The notes beneath the pieces are model-generated. The model was not told the origin of the DNA. It saw only the letters and a list, made by a program, of their open reading frames with translations, and made no database searches. This document shows positions 3,239 through 34,454 of a DNA stretch of 42,618 nt, piece after piece (position 1 is the stretch's first letter; each line of letters begins with the position of its first letter). Where the stretch lies: the IMG/VR virus record IMGVR_UViG_2529292830_000018; one strand, given 5' to 3'. The position numbers were made by a program, and so were the translations under genes. Source of the DNA: a virus (Duplodnaviria > Heunggongvirae > Uroviricota > Caudoviricetes).

Positions 3239-5503
3239 TCATGTCGATGAGTTAATTTCCTCAATGATACGCTTCAGGATTTCATTATTTCTGCGTTGTA
3301 ATGCAGCTTCAAGGACTAAAGCCTCTTCATAACGAATACCATAACGTGAGCCTGCCGGAGTGACCAGAATATCTTCATATTCTGGTTCTGCCTCTTCTTC
3401 ATACTCTTCTTCTACTTCTTGAAACTCTGTCTCGATGTACTCCTCTTCTACATCTTCAACTACAGGAACGCTTACGAATGGATTTTGCGCAAAAGGTGAA
3501 CCATCTTCATTAAGAACAGGTATCATTTCCATTTTTGGAGTCTGATACTCTTCATTCACTACTCGTTTAATCCGTGTTCCGTCTTCCAGTACCTCATCCT
3601 TTAATACCTGACGACTCTCAGTAACCATCACTGGTTTGCTTACAATTCGAGTTTTAGTAACCTGCACTGGAACTGTTGTTATGCGAGTTTTAGTAACCAT
3701 TACACCTTCGTTTGTCTGAACCTTAGTATATTGATCATCCCACTCGTCAAAGCAAAAGAATCCAAATCGGTGCACATCAAGCCCATGACGTTCAAACGCC
3801 TCCTTTGCACGTTGAGCTATTACGCCAAAATGCCAACGAGCTCCGTCTTCCCCTTTTTCTTCTGTTCTGTCAAGATACTGAAATTGAACGAAGTCAACCT
3901 CTGACCATGCGTCAAGTATTGTATCAGTGATTTCAAGAGGTGCAGTTTTAGCTCGCTCATCTGAAGTAACGGTAAAGGCTGTTTGAGTGAATCCACCAGA
4001 CCACACACGACCAGCAGTTCCGACCGTGCTGTTACTGTTCTGTGATAATGGTGCAATAGATGAGTCTACTATTACAATGCCATCCCCTTTTGGAGATAGC
4101 CTCAAATGAATATCTTTATCGCTTCCAGCAACGCCAACAGCAGGAGCATTAGATTCTGTATGCGAGCGCATGGATAGATAATTGGCAGGAACTGTAGGCC
4201 CAGACTCTATGGCAAATATAGGCAACCCAGACGATAATCGTGTAAATACTACGCCATTATCACTAAATAACATTCTGGTTGATCTGGTTGCATCCTCCAA
4301 AACAGAGAGTATTTCAGAAGTTTTCTGATTTAAATTGTTGTACCAGGTCATTGAGTGCCTATTACCAAAAGCAATTGCCACACCTTGACCTGTTGATTCT
4401 CCATCGGTTCCTTTAAGGCTATTACTGCCAAATACGATGCCCTTCAGAAAGCGCGCTGTTTTCCCAGCAGTTTTGTCGTTAGCTATTATTCCAATTGCTG
4501 CCGATGCAGCATTCAACACTTCTCCAGCTTGGGTTAATTCACCACCTGAGCCTAACCATAATGCGTCAGTCTGACCGTTGGGGAACATTGAATTAGGATA
4601 CATTTCACGCTCATTCCCCCTGTTTGCTATATCAAGTTCAAGACCGTGACTTGCTCCTATTGTTCCTGCATTGCGTATAGCTGAACCGTACAAGGCCCAC
4701 ACACTTGATCGTGAGCCAGATGTATCATCGTTTATCGCAGTACCTGCCACCCCTAATGCAGCACCGCCTGCACCACCGAGGGCAGTGTGTGCCGACCCGT
4801 AAACACCTATGCCGTCAGGTGGCGCAATAAATGTATTTCTACAGTGTCTTTCGAGATAGTAAAATATATTATTACCTACACCTGACAACCAAGGTACCTG
4901 ACGCAGCCAGTATCCACCTATAAATGAAACCCCCATCTCCATTTCCCATGATGTAAGGGGATCAGACACTACATCTTGGGTTAGTTTGTATGTGCCCGCT
5001 GGGATATAAATTTTACTTTTCGTGGCATTGGCAGCCAGAAACGCCGCAGTTGAATCAAGCACACCAGTAGGATCAGCACCTCCTGCAAAACCACTCCAAG
5101 TAACAGGCTTTGCTAATCCTCCGACAAATCCAGCTCCACCAGGACCCTCCAGTTCAGATCGCAGTTGATCAGGGTCATACTTCAGCACATTAGGAAAATA
5201 GAACTGCTGCGCACCATATGCATCATAAACAGCCATAGAATGGCCTTGCACAGTTACAAACTTGGCAATCTGTCCGTTATATACCGGATATCCAGCAGCG
5301 TTAATGATGATTGGTTGCGATACAGGAACGTGAGAGCCGTCTTCGTTCTCCACATAAACCTGAATCTGGTTTTCAGGATTTACCGGGTCAGTGTCAATTT
5401 TACCGATATAAATCTTTCCATTAGCTACGGCTTTAAAAGAACGAGCCATAGTGAAGAGTTGCGAAGGCATGCTGACTATAACATTGGCTGTAATGTCTGT
5501 CAT
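3239..5503 (-). CDS. Tailspike protein: P22 gp9-like head-binding N-terminus, distinct central domain, C-terminal S74-type intramolecular chaperone domain
   Basis: N-terminus [61 protein letters not shown] matches the P22 tailspike head-binding domain from memory; C-terminal ~150 aa ([15 protein letters not shown]...[10 protein letters not shown]...acidic tail) resembles the autoproteolytic chaperone domain of endosialidase/L-shaped fibre proteins. Confidence 0.85.
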
Positions 5504-5603: not shown

Positions 5604-6527
5604 TCAGTAGTTATGTACTGAAGGAGGTAATTCTTTATTCTTAAGTCTCATCCATGCGGAAAGATTCGTTGGTCCGTCTGGCTCATTAATATCAACATCT
5701 CGTGTGTGATTGATTAAAACGTCTCTCGCCATTCCAATAACATACGAGAACTCATGACCGTAGTCGTAGCATCTGCCGGAATAGTTAGACTGAATTTGTT
5801 TTAGCGCCGGATACAGTTCGCGGAATAATGCCTGTGAGCGGTTGGCATAATCCCATAACCATACAAGGCTGTTTGCTTCTTTTGCAGAAAGCTCGTTGGT
5901 TTTCTTCTCTTGTTTGCCAATGAACTCACCTTCAAGTGGAACTCGAGCTGCAAGTGATAGTGCTTCGGTAAACTGCTCCTCACTGATTTCTTTGTACGAA
6001 CATCCAAAATGGGATTTTAGTGACGACCACATGGTGATCATCGCCTTAGCCTGTTTTTCTTTTGGCAGAGACTGACCGCGACTCATGACGAGTTGTTTAA
6101 TGGCTTCCTGCTGTTCAGTGGTGATTTTACCCGGCAACGCCTTTTTAGCTTTGCGTGGGTTAACTACATGGCCTTTAGTCCAGTACTCGTAGAGCACATC
6201 GTCACACTCTTCCTGATACTGGATTACCTTGTCGCGGATTTCAGGGCGGACTTTGTTAGGACTGATGCTGTTCAACCAAGCTGCCAATTTTCGTAAAGCC
6301 ATACAAATCATGGCTTGCACCCCACCGGCAGAAGGTATGGTGATTTCCACCATACCCTTCGAGAAGCGTTGAGAAATCTTCTTATGTTGAGATTTCCAGT
6401 CTAGCCCCATTCCCTCAACGATAGGTTTCATTGGGGTATACGGTTCGCCGTTGTGATTGACAACATAAAGCTCTGCGCCGTGGAATGGTACATTGATAGT
6501 AGATACTGCTGTTGCTATACTTTTCAT
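5604..6527 (-). CDS. ant: Antirepressor Ant (P22_AR N-terminal domain type)
   Basis: 307 aa; N-terminal ELYVVNHNGEPYTPMKPIVEGMGLDWKSQHKKI resembles the P22 antirepressor N-domain; sits downstream of an arc-like gene and opposite mnt, as in P22 immI. Confidence 0.8.
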   Translation of the reverse strand: MKSIATAVSTINVPFHGAELYVVNHNGEPYTPMKPIVEGMGLDWKSQHKKISQRFSKGMVEITIPSAGGVQAMICMALRKLAAWLNSISPNKVRPEIRDKVIQYQEECDDVLYEYWTKGHVVNPRKAKKALPGKITTEQQEAIKQLVMSRGQSLPKEKQAKAMITMWSSLKSHFGCSYKEISEEQFTEALSLAARVPLEGEFIGKQEKKTNELSAKEANSLVWLWDYANRSQALFRELYPALKQIQSNYSGRCYDYGHEFSYVIGMARDVLINHTRDVDINEPDGPTNLSAWMRLKNKELPPSVHNY

Positions 6528-6625
6528 GTCGTTAATTCCTATGCGTGGTTTTACGATACCGAAGCCCTGACTGTTCCCGCAGTTGGGGCTTCACTGTTTT
6601 GATTTCTTTGCCGCATCCAAGCGAA

Positions 6626-6871: not shown

Positions 6872-7123
6872 ATGTCTGATCGTAAGTACAAAAACCCTCA
6901 AGTGAATCTGAGGCTTCCTGTAGAGATAAAGGAACGTCTTATTGAACTGGCTGAGGCTAATTCTCGTTCATTAAATGCTGAGATGGTCGCGGCACTTGAA
7001 GCGTGGACCGAAAAAAATAAACACATTCAAGCACTAGACCTTGCAACTATAGCATCACGATTGATAGATCTTGAACACGATGTTGAGACGCTAAAGACCA
7101 TGTATGGTAAGGATGCAAAATGA
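6872..7123 (+). CDS. mnt: Mnt-like ribbon-helix-helix repressor
   Basis: 83 aa, the same length as P22 Mnt; RHH N-terminus (PQVNLRLPVEIKERLIELAEANSRSLNAEMVAALEAW); divergent from arc-ant. Confidence 0.65.
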   Translation: MSDRKYKNPQVNLRLPVEIKERLIELAEANSRSLNAEMVAALEAWTEKNKHIQALDLATIASRLIDLEHDVETLKTMYGKDAK

Positions 7124-7630: not shown

Positions 7631-7834
7631 ATGGAATGGATCATAGGATTTGTTGTTCTTATCTTCATAGCCAGTATGTTTAAACCAAGAAGTTGCGATA
7701 TCTGTGGTGCTGGATTTAAGAAAAAGTACTTCACATGGACTATCGATGGAAAGAAACAGCATCTTTGTCCGTACTGCAACAGTAAAATGGAGAGACGCAA
7801 CAGCGATAGGCGCTTTAAGGATCGATTTGGTTAA
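7631..7834 (+). CDS. Small membrane protein with C-terminal zinc-ribbon motif
   Basis: 67 aa; hydrophobic N-terminal helix (IIGFVVLIFIASMF) then CDICG...CPYC; followed by a hairpin terminator. Confidence 0.4.
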   Translation: MEWIIGFVVLIFIASMFKPRSCDICGAGFKKKYFTWTIDGKKQHLCPYCNSKMERRNSDRRFKDRFG

Positions 7835-7880: not shown

Positions 7881-8849
7881 TTAGATTTCTGGTTTCATTC
7901 TTCCGAAAACCTTTTCTATTCCTTTTTCGTATTCTTCTCTTGTCTCACTCATCGCTGCGACACCAAGAAGCTTACCGATATGCTGACGCAAAGCCTTGAC
8001 ACCAATTTCAGAAAGGAACAGATGCAACTTATCAGATTGTTTTCCGTTCTCGTCTCGGCTGGCTCGAATCTGTTCAAGGATTTTACCTTTACTCTTTGCT
8101 AGCGGGGGGTATATCTGCATGTTGGTTAGCTGCCCAAAACGAATAGGCCGTCCTTTCTCTGGCCTATTCAGGCCGTACAGTCGATACCACTCCTCGTATA
8201 GCTCATCTGGAAATTCCTTTTCATATTGACGAGCCTCTTCACGAACAAACGCTTTGAACTCGTCAATGACAGCCTGAACTTCTGGACGATAACCAGCAAG
8301 CGCATACGCAACCCCCTTAATTCCCGCCTTAGCGGAGGCATTAATAAGTCTCTGTGCTGCGGCGGCTGCCTTTAACCGTGATTGTGGTAGATCGTCATTA
8401 TCTTTGGCTTCTATTAGTGCCCTACCAATATCAACAATTGCTGTAATGTCATAACCTAACGCTTGATGAACGGTTTTAGACTTCGAAGTAAGTTGAAATT
8501 TATAGGGATTTTCCATTTTTCGCTGCAATTCTAGATCTCGGTATTTGCTCATATACTGAGCGCCAAGCAGTTGATCTAAATCCCTGGCATGTTCACCAAT
8601 CCCTAGCAACTGAGATAATCCAGTTTTCGTAACAACGACAGTTTTCGACTCGTCATCCAGTACATAACATTCAGCATCAATGCCAAAATCATCTAAAAAG
8701 TTACCACGATGAGTTGCCCTGAGAATCTTACTTTTCCATCTTGCAGCAGCTGCTTTCTTTGCTATTTCAGAACGCTGCTCTTTAGTCAGCGACTTTGCGC
8801 GAGCGATCCCGCCCTTAGCTTTCCCTTCGCCACTTTTCTTTTCAGTCAT
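7881..8849 (-). CDS. Hypothetical phage protein with lysine/alanine-rich putative DNA-binding N-terminus
   Basis: Start chosen at MTEKKSGEGKAKGGIARAKSLTKEQRSEIAKKAAAARW (ATG 8849); the track ORF extends to 8912 but would cover the operator-like repeats. Occupies the gene16-to-mnt interval where P22 carries sieA. Confidence 0.55.
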   Translation of the reverse strand: MTEKKSGEGKAKGGIARAKSLTKEQRSEIAKKAAAARWKSKILRATHRGNFLDDFGIDAECYVLDDESKTVVVTKTGLSQLLGIGEHARDLDQLLGAQYMSKYRDLELQRKMENPYKFQLTSKSKTVHQALGYDITAIVDIGRALIEAKDNDDLPQSRLKAAAAAQRLINASAKAGIKGVAYALAGYRPEVQAVIDEFKAFVREEARQYEKEFPDELYEEWYRLYGLNRPEKGRPIRFGQLTNMQIYPPLAKSKGKILEQIRASRDENGKQSDKLHLFLSEIGVKALRQHIGKLLGVAAMSETREEYEKGIEKVFGRMKPEI

Positions 8850-8850
8850 A

Positions 8851-8940
8851 ATGCAAGCACCTTTGTTGTGATGTATGCTTGCATTATATACACTGTACAC
8901 ACATACAAGCAAGCATAAAACTAAAACAAAATGCTTGCAT
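8851..8940. promoter_or_regulatory. Two operator-like inverted repeats in a divergent promoter region
   Basis: ATGCAAGCAC (8851-8860) / ATGCTTGCAT (8875-8884) with a 14-bp spacer, and AAGCAAGCAT (8907-8916) / ATGCTTGCAT (8931-8940) with a 14-bp spacer; centres about 56 bp apart. Confidence 0.5.
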
Positions 8941-9004
8941 TACAACCGCGCTACTCCAACTACACATTATCATCTGGTATCCTGCTCAAAACTAAGGAGG
9001 TTGG

Positions 9005-9395
9005 CGTGAAGCAATTTCTTACTGTTATGTTCTTATTCATATCTTTTGGGGCTACAGCAGAGTGCTGGGTCGTTGGAGATATGCGCGGAATAAGCTATTC
9101 AGAACGAAATAATTTCCATCCGGAAGAAGATGGTTTTAGTGGAACATTCATCATTAAGACAAACGGTGAAGATGCCAGCATCACATATTCTGGGACAGAT
9201 GCGGGCGGCATGGCTTACAAAGCATTGTCTAAAAACTCCATCATAGGAATCGGCGCGAATGGCGAAACTCAACGCGTTATCGACTCATGGGTAATACATC
9301 CTACTGGAACAGTTTTAATGTCAAAAACCATTTCCGGTTATGGAAATATGGATTCAACCAAAGCTTTTGTTGGAAAAGTAAAAAGAAAATGCTAA
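9005..9395 (+). CDS. Hypothetical secreted protein (signal peptide)
   Basis: GTG start at 9005 preceded by AAGGAGG; N-terminus KQFLTVMFLFISFGATA-ECW looks like a Sec signal peptide; AT-rich; orientation opposite to the flanking phage genes. Confidence 0.5.
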
Positions 9396-9405
9396 GGATG
9401 TTGAT

Positions 9406-9612
9406 ATGAAAAAATTTACTATTGGGTTATTTGCAATCTTTTTACTTGTTTTGTCTGCATTTACTGGTTATGGGGTTAAATATTCATCAATAACTGACGG
9501 TAACAAGATTGAATGTAAATACCTAAGCGCTTCTGGAAAATTCTCCAGAAATTATTGGTACTCGGATAATGGGATCATGGGGATTAGCAATTGTCCTTTA
9601 GTTGACAGATAG
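9406..9612 (+). CDS. Hypothetical small secreted protein (signal peptide)
   Basis: 68 aa; MKKFTIGLFAIFLLVLSAFTG signal-peptide-like N-terminus; immediately downstream of 9005..9395. Confidence 0.45.
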   Translation: MKKFTIGLFAIFLLVLSAFTGYGVKYSSITDGNKIECKYLSASGKFSRNYWYSDNGIMGISNCPLVDR

Positions 9613-9672
9613 CCATCCTTGGCTTTATGGGGATTAACATGGTAACGGTTGGTTGGATTATCTCGTTCCTTG

Positions 9673-11826
9673 TTACATCTTTTGGTCGCCGTCACTGGCT
9701 GTAGTATCTTGCTGAGATAACCATGTAATAATCCCAGTGCGAGCAATGGTTTTTGCTTCATCTGTTGATAGGGTTTTCTCCCATCTCTTAAATGCCCCAG
9801 ATTGCATCAGTTTCCTTTCTATTGCGCGTCTCACTTCTGCTCTGTCTACTGGTGCGTTTTGCAGGCGAAATAGCATTGATTTAAACTCAGGAGAAGACAG
9901 TAGAGCATCAGCAGCCTTTATCCTGCTTGTTTTCCCTGACATCAATGCGGACGTTATCACCCCTGTTGCACCTACACCAGGAAGACCAGATAAGCTTGTA
10001 ACACCTTCCGCCGCAGCAGCTTTTGAGGCTATTCCATAAATTTTTGCTAGACTACCCTTTTCCTTCAGAAAGTTATTAACTTGCTGATCCACAAGGCTGC
10101 TAGCATACTGCTTACCAGTATTGAGTCTATTCATAGCCTTGGCTGCTTGATAAATCGTATCAAGGCGCTTTGATGCATCTGTGCCAATAGCATCACGGAG
10201 AGCCTTCATATTGGCCCCATTGCGTGACATTCCGTTATACCATTTTACAAATCCATCAACCCCTAATTGCTGACCTGGTGATTTAGCATAGCTGGTAAAT
10301 GCTTTATTCATTGAGGTGAGCGCAACTTCCTGCCGCATATCCTTTGGAATTGACTTCATTAATTGCCTAAAGTCACCACCGTTTCCTTTTGCCATATTAA
10401 CAACGGCACTTTCAACTTTTGGAATTGCTGATTGCTGAAGTTTTCTACCCAAAACGGTTACGGCATCATCTTCAATGGATTTTCGTGTTTTTACCAACTC
10501 CTTACCAAGCGTCCATAACTCCCCTGCGCCATATTTTTCTGCGACAGCCTGTTGGTCATCTGTTATAGCTGCATATAACTTTTTAAGAACACCTGTTTCT
10601 TCATCCTTGAATGGGCCAGAGCCTTTGCCAATAGCTTGCCCAACCTGCTTTCTAGCGAGATCTAAACGCCCATACGTTGGCAAGGTGTTTGGATCAAGTC
10701 GGTTCAATGTCCGCTTCATTATTGGAGATAATTCATCAATTCCACCTATGTCATCAGCAAAATCCTCTAAAAAATTCAATGTATTGGTTGCCTCAATACG
10801 GTCTCTTACTGGAACCTTTTCGGCAATTTTGTTGTAGATGTTATCTGACTGATTTTGTAATGATGAAATGGTTTTATCAAAATTATCTGCAAGCCTGTCA
10901 GAAACCAGTTGCTTATCAAGGTTTCCCCCAAATGAAGTTATCATTTCATCAGCTTTTCTTCCTAATTCAGTAATAAATCGCTTATGTGCCTCACTAATCT
11001 CTGTTCCAGGGAGGCTTGCCACTGCATTATCAAGAGCCCTGACAGCAGGATTATTAGAGATCATTCCTGGAGTGGCATAATTTTCCAGTTCTAGCTCACG
11101 GATGGCATTTATCGCGTTAAAATCAGGATTAACTTCATCGGCGAAACCTTGAATAGCTCGTTGCCCGCCAATAAATTTATTATCCATTGCGCCAGCAGCT
11201 TTCTTTAACGTTGCTTTAGATGATTTACTCCCCATCCCTACGGATGAGCGATAAATATCCCCGGCACTATTTTTAATTTTTCCTGCAATCTTCCCAAGCG
11301 CTGGACCAACAATCTCGGCTACAGGGCCAGCCACAGCGCCAATAGCAGCGCCGGAAGCAACATCGCTATTTGTTCCATTGGCTACAATAGCCCCTTCTCC
11401 AGCACCAAGCCCTGCGGCGGCAGCCAGCCTTGCCGCTCCTTTCGGAACCTGAGAAATAATCCCACCACCACTAACAAATGGCGCTGCTTGTCCAACAAAC
11501 TCACCAACATCTTGTGCGGTTGATGGTTTTGCCGCTAACTTCTGCTGTAGAGACTGAATTGCGGCTTGCTCTTCTGGTGTCATATCCTGAAACAGGCCAA
11601 CACCTTTACCAACATCCATCAATCCACTGAGAACGCCATACATAAAACGGTCGAAACCGTTAGCATTATTAACAACATTTTCCTGTCTGGAATTTTCCTC
11701 TGGTGAAACCAAAGGAGATTGCTGCTGTTCTGGTTGGGAATCAAGCACAAAGCCATCAGGAAGTTGTGAGTTATCAGGCTGTTCATCCAGAACAAACCCC
11801 TCTGGTAAACCTACATTGGTTGCCAT
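9673..11826 (-). CDS. Ejection (injection) protein, P22 gp16-like
   Basis: 717 aa; position after the gp20 homologue in P22 gene order; N-terminal tandem [11 protein letters not shown] / [11 protein letters not shown] repeat. Confidence 0.75.
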
Positions 11827-32934: not shown

Positions 32935-33651
<717 letters not shown>

Positions 33652-33658
33652 CACGTAA

Positions 33659-34096
33659 ATGATTAAAGAACGTATTTCTTATATCATTCCGATTGCGATG
33701 GATGAAGGCAACCCAGTAACTCCAGTTCTTATCTATGAAATGGATAAAGACTCCCATGAAGTGGATCTATCATTTGGCGCTTTTTTTATCGGCCTTAAGG
33801 CTACAAAAAAATATTCCATAGGCATTGAGGTTTTCAATGCTCAAGAAATACCGATACCAATTGACACAAAACTGTACTCCAACCATAAGTTTTTTACGGT
33901 AGCAGAAGCCAACGATGGAGAAACCATCGTATCAACTTCTATGAGAATTAACTTCCCAAGGGTGAAAATTATCAAGCCTGGGATATTCGAAGTTAGAGCA
34001 TCACTGGTTAATCCTGATAAAGGCGAAGTAATTGATGTAAAAAGTTCGTTTTTTGACGTGAAGATAACAGGATCAGTTCGCGATGAGTTTAGATAA
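33659..34096 (+). CDS. Hypothetical protein occupying the rexA position (no similarity to RexA seen)
   Basis: 145-aa AT-rich ORF starting 8 bp after the cI stop; no TM segment; predicted soluble. Confidence 0.5.
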   Translation: MIKERISYIIPIAMDEGNPVTPVLIYEMDKDSHEVDLSFGAFFIGLKATKKYSIGIEVFNAQEIPIPIDTKLYSNHKFFTVAEANDGETIVSTSMRINFPRVKIIKPGIFEVRASLVNPDKGEVIDVKSSFFDVKITGSVRDEFR

Positions 34097-34454
34097 CAAG
34101 GTTGCTCAGCTTCGTCCAAATCAAAACATATCTCGCCCAATTGGACACTATTCCACTGATGATGCATACTCACGGCATGGTGGAGGAAACGGCGGAGGTA
34201 ACATGCTTGAGGCTAGAGTTGCAAAGCTAGAGTCTGATGTTGAATACATCAAGCGCGATCTCGCTGAAGTAAAGTCAGATATAAAATCTGTAGATTCTCG
34301 TCTGTCAGGTATTGAGACAAGCATTAGCTCAGCAAAAATCACCATCAAGGCATCTGCGGTCGTTGTCAGTTTCGTGTTCGCATTTTGCGCCTACATTTTT
34401 GGAAGTTATGTTTCCAAAATCCTTGATGCCTTAAACGGACTCGTTCTTAAGTAA
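34083..34454 (+). CDS. Hypothetical coiled-coil protein with C-terminal transmembrane helix, occupying the rexB position
   Basis: 123-aa ORF overlapping the upstream ORF by 14 nt; alternative start at 34203 (GGAGGT-aac-ATG, 83 aa). Gly-rich stretch, amphipathic coiled coil, hydrophobic helix AVVVSFVFAFCAYIFGSYV. Confidence 0.45.
   Translation: MSLDNKVAQLRPNQNISRPIGHYSTDDAYSRHGGGNGGGNMLEARVAKLESDVEYIKRDLAEVKSDIKSVDSRLSGIETSISSAKITIKASAVVVSFVFAFCAYIFGSYVSKILDALNGLVLK

Follow-up and report, generated by a model that had tools for sequence, protein, structure and literature searches.

A P22-like prophage carries new Hex- and YobH-family members in its sieA slot

Some small proteins of resident phages that bear signal peptides, such as P1 Sim and T4 Sp, stop incoming phage DNA after adsorption. 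The superinfection-exclusion protein of P22 is SieA, a prophage-expressed protein that targets the gp16/gp20 DNA-delivery conduit (PMC10883804). SieA resides in the inner membrane, with three transmembrane segments and no signal sequence. On the P22 map, the sieA gene is convergent with gene 16 and lies on its mnt side.

A second system is the hex ('heterologous exclusion') locus of phage 434. 434 Hex excludes P22 in Salmonella lysogens (Susskind and Botstein 1980, as cited in PMC3564112), and when hex is lost, spontaneous induction goes up about 30-fold, in recA+ cells only (PMC3564112). A fragment of the protein, sHex, partly complements in trans and inhibits the cleavage of both the 434 and the P22 repressor in vitro, and the mechanism proposed from this work is a cytoplasmic block of RecA-stimulated repressor autocleavage (PMC3564112). 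The lambda-type cI is reportedly not protected by Hex, and the full-length protein is toxic when overexpressed, and its purification was not possible (PMC3564112). A literature search on Hex found nothing further beyond this 2013 paper. The phage 434 gene is annotated as hex, 'repressor protection protein', in GenBank (OL657227).

The third relevant protein, YobH, is chromosomal and is encoded in the mgrB-yobH-kdgR locus (b4536 in E. coli, SL1344_1770 in Salmonella). Salmonella YobH has 79 aa and its loss causes a 3-fold invasion defect; a role in host-cell invasion and secretion have been reported for the Salmonella protein only, and the function of E. coli YobH was still undetermined in 2026 (PMC13192267).

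The DNA analysed here (the window, a stretch of 42,618 nucleotides) is a P22-like prophage. Its genes include an integrase, a glycosyltransferase, a tailspike that carries the P22 head-binding domain, immI, gp7, gp20 and a lambda-type cI. An Rfam scan of the window recognised only the sar RNA in immI, at 76.6 bits, all other matches being below threshold. Two small genes on the plus strand, ORF1 and ORF2, are flanked on both sides by phage genes of the minus strand. The features of the locus are as follows.

5604 to 6527: ant, a gene of immI
6529 to 6595: sar RNA of immI, matched by Rfam
6872 to 7123: mnt, a gene of immI
7881 to 8849, minus strand: left of the cassette and divergent from ORF1, the gene of a P63C-domain protein of 322 aa (PHROG 2384)
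8848 to 8942, no strand: extended palindrome that contains ATGCAAGCA/TGCTTGCAT half-sites at four places (8851-8859, 8876-8884, 8909-8916 and 8931-8938)
8953 to 9005, plus strand: slot junction and translation-initiation region, including the ribosome-binding site of ORF1
8994 to 9000, plus strand: ribosome-binding site of ORF1, AAGGAGG, with a 5-nt spacer to the GTG
9006 to 9395, plus strand: ORF1, Hex family (PHROG 2651), 129 aa, GTG start at 9006-9008 and TAA at 9393-9395
9006 to 9059, plus strand: predicted Sec signal peptide of ORF1, residues 1-18, with cleavage between ATA and ECW
9394 to 9398, plus strand: ribosome-binding site of ORF2, AAGGA, overlapping the ORF1 stop codon, 7 nt to the ATG
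9406 to 9612, plus strand: ORF2, YobH family (Pfam PF13996, PHROG 21022), 68 aa, ATG at 9406 and stop at 9610-9612
9673 to 11826, minus strand: right of the cassette and convergent with ORF2, the gene of a gp16-type ejection (DNA transfer) protein of 717 aa
32938 to 33651: the cI gene of the window, lambda type, followed by unrelated ORFs

An earlier note on this DNA had described the pair as two AT-rich, reverse-oriented genes between the ejection genes and immI. The composition is as described, with a GC content of 40.5% for ORF1, 33.3% for ORF2 and 38.1% for the cassette, compared with 46.2% for the window. The location is correct in rough terms only: immI proper lies about 1.9 kb away, and this gap contains three small ORFs and the P63C gene. 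The same note gave 68 aa for ORF2, which is correct, and placed the start of ORF1 at 9005 with a length of 130 aa, which should read 9006 and 129 aa.

The GTG start of ORF1, proposed earlier from the sequence together with a strong ribosome-binding site, is supported by sequence comparison. ORF1 begins with MKQFLTVMFLFISFGATA, followed after the cleavage site by ECW, and would leave a mature protein of 111 aa. Among relatives the first 18 residues vary freely (MKQFLTVMFLFISFGATA, MKLIIAMAFLVFSFSVSA, MKRLIVGALMLASFGASA and MKWILALLIAAPLSSIA), and yet each has a basic K/R N-terminus and a hydrophobic core, with the AxA motif always kept before a near-invariant (E/S)CW. The internal ATG at 9027, which PGAP uses as the start of a 122-aa protein, is not conserved among these relatives, and the junction of ribosome-binding site and GTG recurs ahead of different genes in further phages. 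Since the N-termini keep the form of a signal peptide, the ATG at 9027 is unconserved and the junction is conserved, GTG is the real start; therefore the 122-aa RefSeq call truncates the signal peptide.

Both genes are short, and RefSeq labels ORF1 a 'hypothetical protein' with a different start, as might be expected if they were chance frames or decaying remnants without function. The conservation data effectively refute this reading, which retains a negligible probability. Ten distinct close alleles of ORF1 give a pN/pS of 0.18, and there are 126 diverged relatives with a conserved architecture (see below). Public contigs with the exact ORF1 protein number more than 1000 for the 122-aa call and 188 for the 129-aa call, always under the same uninformative label, and those with ORF2 number 295; both proteins occur in Salmonella as well as in E. 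coli and E. albertii. Strong ribosome-binding sites and matches to curated families complete the case that the two genes are real. Neither had been assigned to a family in the earlier note, but they are no orphans; their recognition as new members of the Hex family (PHROG 2651) and the YobH family (PF13996) in a known moron slot is sound. There is no match for ORF1 in Pfam, none for either protein in NCBIfam or PADLOC, and a profile search of the PDB found nothing.

ORF1 matches phrog_2651 with an E-value of 2.9e-61 (residues 14-129 on positions 1-116 of the 117 in the profile), and 434 Hex matches the same profile at 1.4e-58. An HMM of the ORF1 subfamily gives Hex a score of 60.5 bits (HMM 3-129 against Hex residues 3-132). 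By tblastn against phage genomes, ORF1 and 434 Hex align at about 27% identity over residues 1-129 (E 5e-5). Because they share a PHROG, an HMM score over the whole length and a full-length alignment, ORF1 is a Hex-family protein. In the same tblastn search, near-identical matches were found in the P22-like Salmonella phages Emek and ST-35, and full-length matches of about 27% identity in 434, lambda-imm434, HK446, HK633, Sf6 (gp38), Sf101, Huey and Chlobot. All the matches in the phage collection are Hex-family genes in records of Salmonella, Escherichia, Shigella and 'Enterobacteria' phages.

When 1.84 billion representatives of 50%-identity clusters were searched with a profile built from close relatives of ORF1, 126 proteins matched at E<=1e-3, nearly all of 120-140 aa and over their full length. 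The arrangement of signal peptide, AxA motif and cysteine is present in 106 of the 108 full-length representatives. An alanine stands at position -2 from the cysteine in 79 of the representatives with this architecture, and 103 have a cysteine within the last 12 residues. In 56 diverse members there is no variation at C20, G28 or G123, and at W95 and C129 conservation is 90% or higher. ORF1 has all the hallmarks of the family: the signal peptide, the mature N-terminal cysteine, a tryptophan in ETW/SWV, and the C-terminal FVGxVxxxC. With 434 Hex it has in common the signal peptide, a mature N-terminus of (E/S)CW(V/I)V, the ETW-type motif and the C-terminal FVGxVxGxC; Hex itself begins with MIRIAALLSILLTTSANS, followed by ECWIV, and ends in FVGDVVGTCNQ. 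A profile search of genome contigs gave one locus, in Candidatus Symbiopectobacterium (55% identity), a result that reflects narrow search patterns and not true rarity.

Where the two branches of the family differ is in their genomic position. The homologues of about 27% identity listed above each lie directly downstream of a repressor gene, and the 434-type hex belongs to the PRM transcript, where it adjoins cI in each of 80 loci. ORF1 instead lies in the sieA slot and not directly downstream of cI, a position that is a trait of the 434 branch and not of the whole family. Both are nonetheless placed where expression from a prophage is expected. One prophage contig has an ORF1-type and a 434-type gene together, so that the two are probably not redundant. 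Two further distant members were found, one in a chromosomal context and the other in an integrase-linked island. The neighbourhood of the chromosomal member has no recognisable repressor or phage gene, and since such contexts exist, the basic activity of the family need not be directed against phages.

The predicted export of ORF1, already proposed in the earlier note, is strongly supported by the sequence comparisons. The mature protein is predicted to fold into a small, soluble-looking beta-barrel of 8-9 strands, in which Cys20 and Cys129 are among the first and last residues; a disulfide between them probably closes the barrel. The barrel resembles ligand binders of the lipocalin, FABP and avidin type as much as anything else, and the modelled fold gives no functional clue.

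An exported barrel might also be placed at the outer membrane, either as an integral 8-stranded barrel or as a receptor-masking lipoprotein similar to Cor and Llp. The lipoprotein form was rejected for want of a lipobox, defined as [LVI][ASTVI][GAS]C where the signal peptide ends: the sequence GATA-E-C puts the cysteine at +2 after AxA, the residue before it is a glutamate, and a lipobox-like motif occurs in only 1 of 106 Hex-family members. A barrel of the OmpX/PagP/NspA type was likewise rejected, as the continuous hydrophobic outer face and the C-terminal aromatic beta-signal are both absent. No strand face is uniformly hydrophobic, ORF1 is net polar and ends in ...KRKC, and 111 residues with tight turns are short for such a barrel. 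P22-like phages utilise the O-antigen and not a protein as their receptor, which also counts against an outer-membrane role. Overall, such a role is highly improbable.

The published work on Hex offers another reading, in which ORF1 would be a cytoplasmic repressor-protection protein and ORF2 unrelated cargo. The induction phenotype of hex mutants, its dependence on recA, the inhibition of repressor cleavage by sHex in vitro and the GenBank label of the gene all speak for it. However, signal peptides and conserved terminal cysteines throughout the family are difficult to square with a target in the cytoplasm. The paper that describes Hex makes no mention of a signal peptide or of export (PMC3564112). 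It gives the N-terminus of sHex as E43 in a 158-aa numbering; when hex is read from the 5'-most AUG of its frame, this residue follows ANS directly, at the predicted signal-peptidase site ANS/E. The full-length protein, as noted, was toxic and could not be purified. In addition, ORF1 lies 23 kb from the repressor gene of the window, whose lambda type is the one that Hex reportedly leaves unprotected, and some Hex-family loci are chromosomal without a recognisable repressor or phage gene nearby. Repressor protection by ORF1 is therefore regarded as very unlikely.

ORF2 matches the Pfam YobH family at 39.2 bits, against a gathering cut-off of 27 (residues 9-66 on positions 10-68 of the 70 in the profile), and RefSeq names it 'YobH family protein'. 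By BLASTP it is 35% identical to E. coli K-12 YobH over 52 residues (E 2e-11), with both cysteines aligned. The hydrophobic N-terminus, the GYGV motif and the two cysteines are common to ORF2 and YobH; ORF2 differs in being phage-borne, in its length of 68 aa without the C-terminal tail, and in its location outside the chromosomal yobH locus. Its layout is an N-terminal hydrophobic helix followed by a domain of about 50 aa with two conserved cysteines (C37 and C63). An AF2 model of low confidence (pLDDT 67) has a helix at residues 2-19 and then four strands. The signal peptide claimed earlier for ORF2 is less certain than that of ORF1: the N-terminus, MKKFTIGLFAIFLLVLSA followed by FTGYGV, is possibly a cleavable signal or an uncleaved signal-anchor. 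No cysteine lies near it, and hence there is no lipobox there.

The ribosome-binding site of ORF2 overlaps the stop codon of ORF1, which indicates that the two genes are bicistronic. ORF2 was found in eight independent places, always directly after ORF1 and with identical spacing in all eight. Six of these places show linkage of ORF2 to the 717-aa gp16 variant. In the seventh, E. coli E7476, the gene for this variant is broken by an IS66 element, and in the eighth a DnaB-type helicase lies downstream and the locus seems to have been rearranged. In a set of 80 IMG/VR contigs that carry an ORF1-type gene, only one has ORF2; since the other 79 are without it, the two proteins need not act together.

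The same 80 contigs were used to survey the slot. A gp16-type gene was matched in all 80 loci, convergent with the ORF1-type gene, and it adjoins it at the same 31-nt offset in 74. The flanks (±4 kb) of all 80 gave no match to P22 sieA. Upstream, the marker closest to the gene is mnt, on the same strand, in 47 loci; in 9 it is the P63C gene, and the remaining loci have other genes there. In E. coli E7476 the mnt stop codon is 44 nt from the ORF1 start, with no terminator between them. The gene has the orientation and position of P22 sieA and nearly the same sequence in front. ORF1, a predicted soluble exported barrel, differs from SieA in kind; neither ORF1 (BLASTP E 0.93) nor ORF2 (E 4.1) shows similarity to it. 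In another P22-like phage the same slot, flanked by a gp16-like gene and by the tailspike, is held by a Hex-family member of only 27% identity to ORF1.

The 35-40 bp before the GTG of ORF1 are nearly the same as those before sieA (catctggtatcctgctcaaaactaaggaggttggcGTG and catggtatcctgcacaaaactaaggaggttggtGTG, respectively). A junction with the consensus ...GGTATCCTGC(T/A)CAAAACTAAGGAGGTTGG(C/T)GTG precedes epsilon34 gp14, a small ORF of JEP4, ORF1 of E7476 and P22 sieA, and megablast matches in phages without ORF1 span only 8953-9015 of the window. Behind this junction there is an HkcB-like gene (a transmembrane segment and a coiled coil) in epsilon34, an unannotated 62-aa ORF with two transmembrane segments in JEP4, and a YobH-like gene in E. 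albertii. Because the same sequence precedes these different genes, it is one recombination junction at which genes for small envelope proteins are exchanged. ORF1 and ORF2 form a moron-like, AT-rich unit whose transcription opposes the late operon.

The 156-bp spacer between the P63C gene and ORF1 holds the palindrome, which has a fold z-score of -5.3. Its good sigma-70 promoter is that of the P63C gene, on the minus strand (TTGCTT at 8912-8907, 18 nt, TATAAT at 8888-8883), and overlaps the palindrome. A plus-strand promoter scan of 8850-9005 found none, and a relaxed scan gave only a weak candidate, TTGTGA-17-TACACT, with 8/12 matches. According to the earlier note, the two ORFs share an operator-containing divergent promoter region with the 322-aa gene. 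This link is not integral to the cassette: homology with the mnt-linked and other contexts of ORF1 begins at about 8953-8975, downstream of the palindrome, which argues that the palindrome probably belongs to the P63C module rather than to the cassette, and the P63C gene is upstream in few of the loci surveyed. Control of the spacer by Mnt or Arc was considered and rejected, as Pant/Pmnt has no further copies of the ATGCTTGCAT half-sites. No terminator was found after ORF2 (fold z-score -0.44).

How might such a cassette act? An exclusion or envelope role for ORF1 fits both its homology to 434 Hex and its position in the sieA slot of P22. The reading put forward here, tentatively and with slightly less than an even chance of being correct, is that ORF1 is a periplasmic exclusion protein that would hinder DNA delivery by P22-like phages in a manner analogous to SieA. 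It is favoured because of the export signals and terminal cysteines found family-wide and the repeated placement beside ejection genes in the sieA slot. Points on the other side are that Hex could exclude P22 at a step after injection, that some Hex-family members are chromosomal, and that PADLOC gave no match. The region would then be a bicistronic, horizontally mobile moron cassette that the prophage most likely expresses: read-through from Pmnt would serve where mnt precedes it, and a weak promoter close by in the present window. ORF1 would be exported by the Sec route, lose its signal peptide, be released into the periplasm and fold there into a small, soluble, disulfide-closed barrel. Its target might be the conduit formed by the ejection proteins gp7, gp20 and gp16 of incoming P22-like phages, or their needle; the likeness to the unrelated, inner-membrane SieA would be functional only. 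The likeness to P1 Sim and T4 Sp is a conceptual analogy, and T4 Sp is helical, not a barrel. ORF2 would either be exported or use its N-terminal helix as an inner-membrane anchor, with its two-cysteine domain of about 50 residues in the periplasm. It may be an optional add-on: an accessory factor for the envelope or for exclusion, or one for interaction with the host, such as Salmonella YobH.

The last of these options leads to the main alternative, a module for lysogenic conversion or host fitness (envelope, invasion or ligand binding) that has no effect on phages. The invasion link of Salmonella YobH, the calycin-like appearance of the ORF1 barrel, the Hex-family members located outside prophages and the AT-rich, moron-like nature of the cassette are all consistent with it. 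However, the one characterised relative of ORF1 has a phage-exclusion phenotype, and ORF1 is repeatedly linked to ejection genes in loci where sieA was not matched. Furthermore, ORF2 has limited identity to YobH, and the mechanism of YobH itself is unknown. A pure host-fitness role is a serious candidate, and on balance the less likely one.

It is possible to go further than exclusion by ORF1 and to speculate, with considerable doubt, that the whole Hex family (434 Hex, Sf6 gp38, ORF1 and the roughly 126 clusters) consists of periplasmic, disulfide-closed barrels that bind the ejection conduit of P22-like podophages. The cytoplasmic 'repressor protection' might then be a side effect or an artefact, and the Hex-, SieA-, HkcB- and YobH-like genes might be alternative anti-ejectosome modules swapped at one junction.

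Which P22-like phages are able to superinfect E. coli, Salmonella and Shigella depends in part on the prophage genes in the sieA slot, a matter of relevance to phage therapy and to competition between prophages. A very common 'hypothetical protein' is now tied to an old genetic locus, hex. The predicted export of the Hex family makes the mechanism of heterologous exclusion testable, and suggests that the sole biochemical model of Hex needs a second look. Similarly, a phage-borne paralogue could help to reveal what YobH does. As a minor observation, the minus-strand ORFs of 38-69 aa within the ORF1-ORF2 region were taken as chance frames.

A junction of approximately 35-55 bp, GGTATCCTGC(T/A)CAAAACTAAGGAGGTTGG(C/T)GTG, is conserved 5' of differing small envelope-protein genes in P22-like phages. 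Copies were located as follows:

window 8953-9008, junction 5' of the Hex-like gene ORF1
L022:2830-2866, junction upstream of P22 sieA
L008:2500-2547, junction in phage JEP4
L002:5000-5043, junction in E. coli E7476
L007:2490-2534, a further copy of the junction

Besides sieA and the Hex-like gene, the genes that follow the junction include an HkcB-like gene in epsilon34, a YobH-like gene in E. albertii P0027, and, in phage JEP4, a 62-aa two-TM ORF that lacks annotation (L008:2545-2733). It looks like a site of cassette exchange.

The YobH-family ORF2 is almost always linked with one variant of the gp16-type ejection protein, the 717-aa form of PHROG 6704 (window 9406-11826; L014-L021), while prophages carrying ORF1 only have gp16 types of 612-636 aa. 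This association may reflect either simple linkage or functional pairing. Insertion elements have entered two related loci: in E. coli A28 (L004:2492-3966), ORF1 is broken by the IS256-family element ISEic2, and in E. coli E7476 (L002:5708-10573), an IS66 element lies inside the adjacent 717-aa ejection gene. ORF2 is intact in both.

Two branches of Hex can occur in one virus. The 41-kb viral contig IMGVR_UViG_648276644_000012 (L087 and L105) carries a 434-type hex beside cI and, in the sieA slot, a hex-like gene of the ORF1 type; because both are present on this contig, the two branches are suggested to be non-redundant. The RefSeq/PGAP call for ORF1 is usually 122 aa, starting from the internal ATG at 9027 instead of the GTG at 9006, and the n-region of the signal peptide is thereby lost. 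Hex of phage 434 often appears in annotations as a 103-aa version without a signal peptide, and the label 'Hex' is absent from both the 122-aa and the 103-aa annotations. The phage 434 gene is:

L006:1429-1905, hex of phage 434

The published stable fragment of this protein, 'sHex', has E43 as its N-terminus in the 158-aa numbering, and toxicity was seen for full-length Hex; export was not considered in that study (PMC3564112). E43 is the first residue past a predicted signal-peptidase site, between ANS and ECW. The cytoplasmic RecA/repressor model of Hex may need to be re-examined.

Next to the slot, the start of the P63C-domain gene carries a further element:

window 8848-8942, extended palindrome in which the half-site ATGCAAGCA/TGCTTGCAT occurs four times

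The palindrome overlaps the start codon of this gene and its promoter, TTGCTT-18-TATAAT (minus strand), and the region has an RNA fold z-score of -5.3. The half-sites do not recur at Pant/Pmnt.

Several other genes of the window are of note:

7631-7834, plus strand, 67-aa ORF with a hydrophobic N-terminal segment and a CxxC...CxxC zinc-ribbon-like motif
33659..34096, 145-aa ORF at the rexAB position downstream of cI
34083..34454, 123-aa ORF at the same position, with a hydrophobic C-terminal segment
1428-3173, plus strand, 581-aa family-2 glycosyltransferase between integrase and tailspike
3239-5503, minus strand, tailspike with a P22 head-binding domain and a Peptidase_S74 intramolecular-chaperone domain

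The P63C gene and the immI side flank the 67-aa ORF, which has no match in Pfam or PADLOC, and a weak one in PHROG (phrog_3794, E 0.006). The prophage repressor is a lambda-type cI of 237 aa; together with the two ORFs downstream, it covers 32938-34454. These two ORFs are unrelated to rexAB, have no Pfam match, and are candidate morons of the PRM transcript. The glycosyltransferase is probably a surface-polysaccharide conversion gene.
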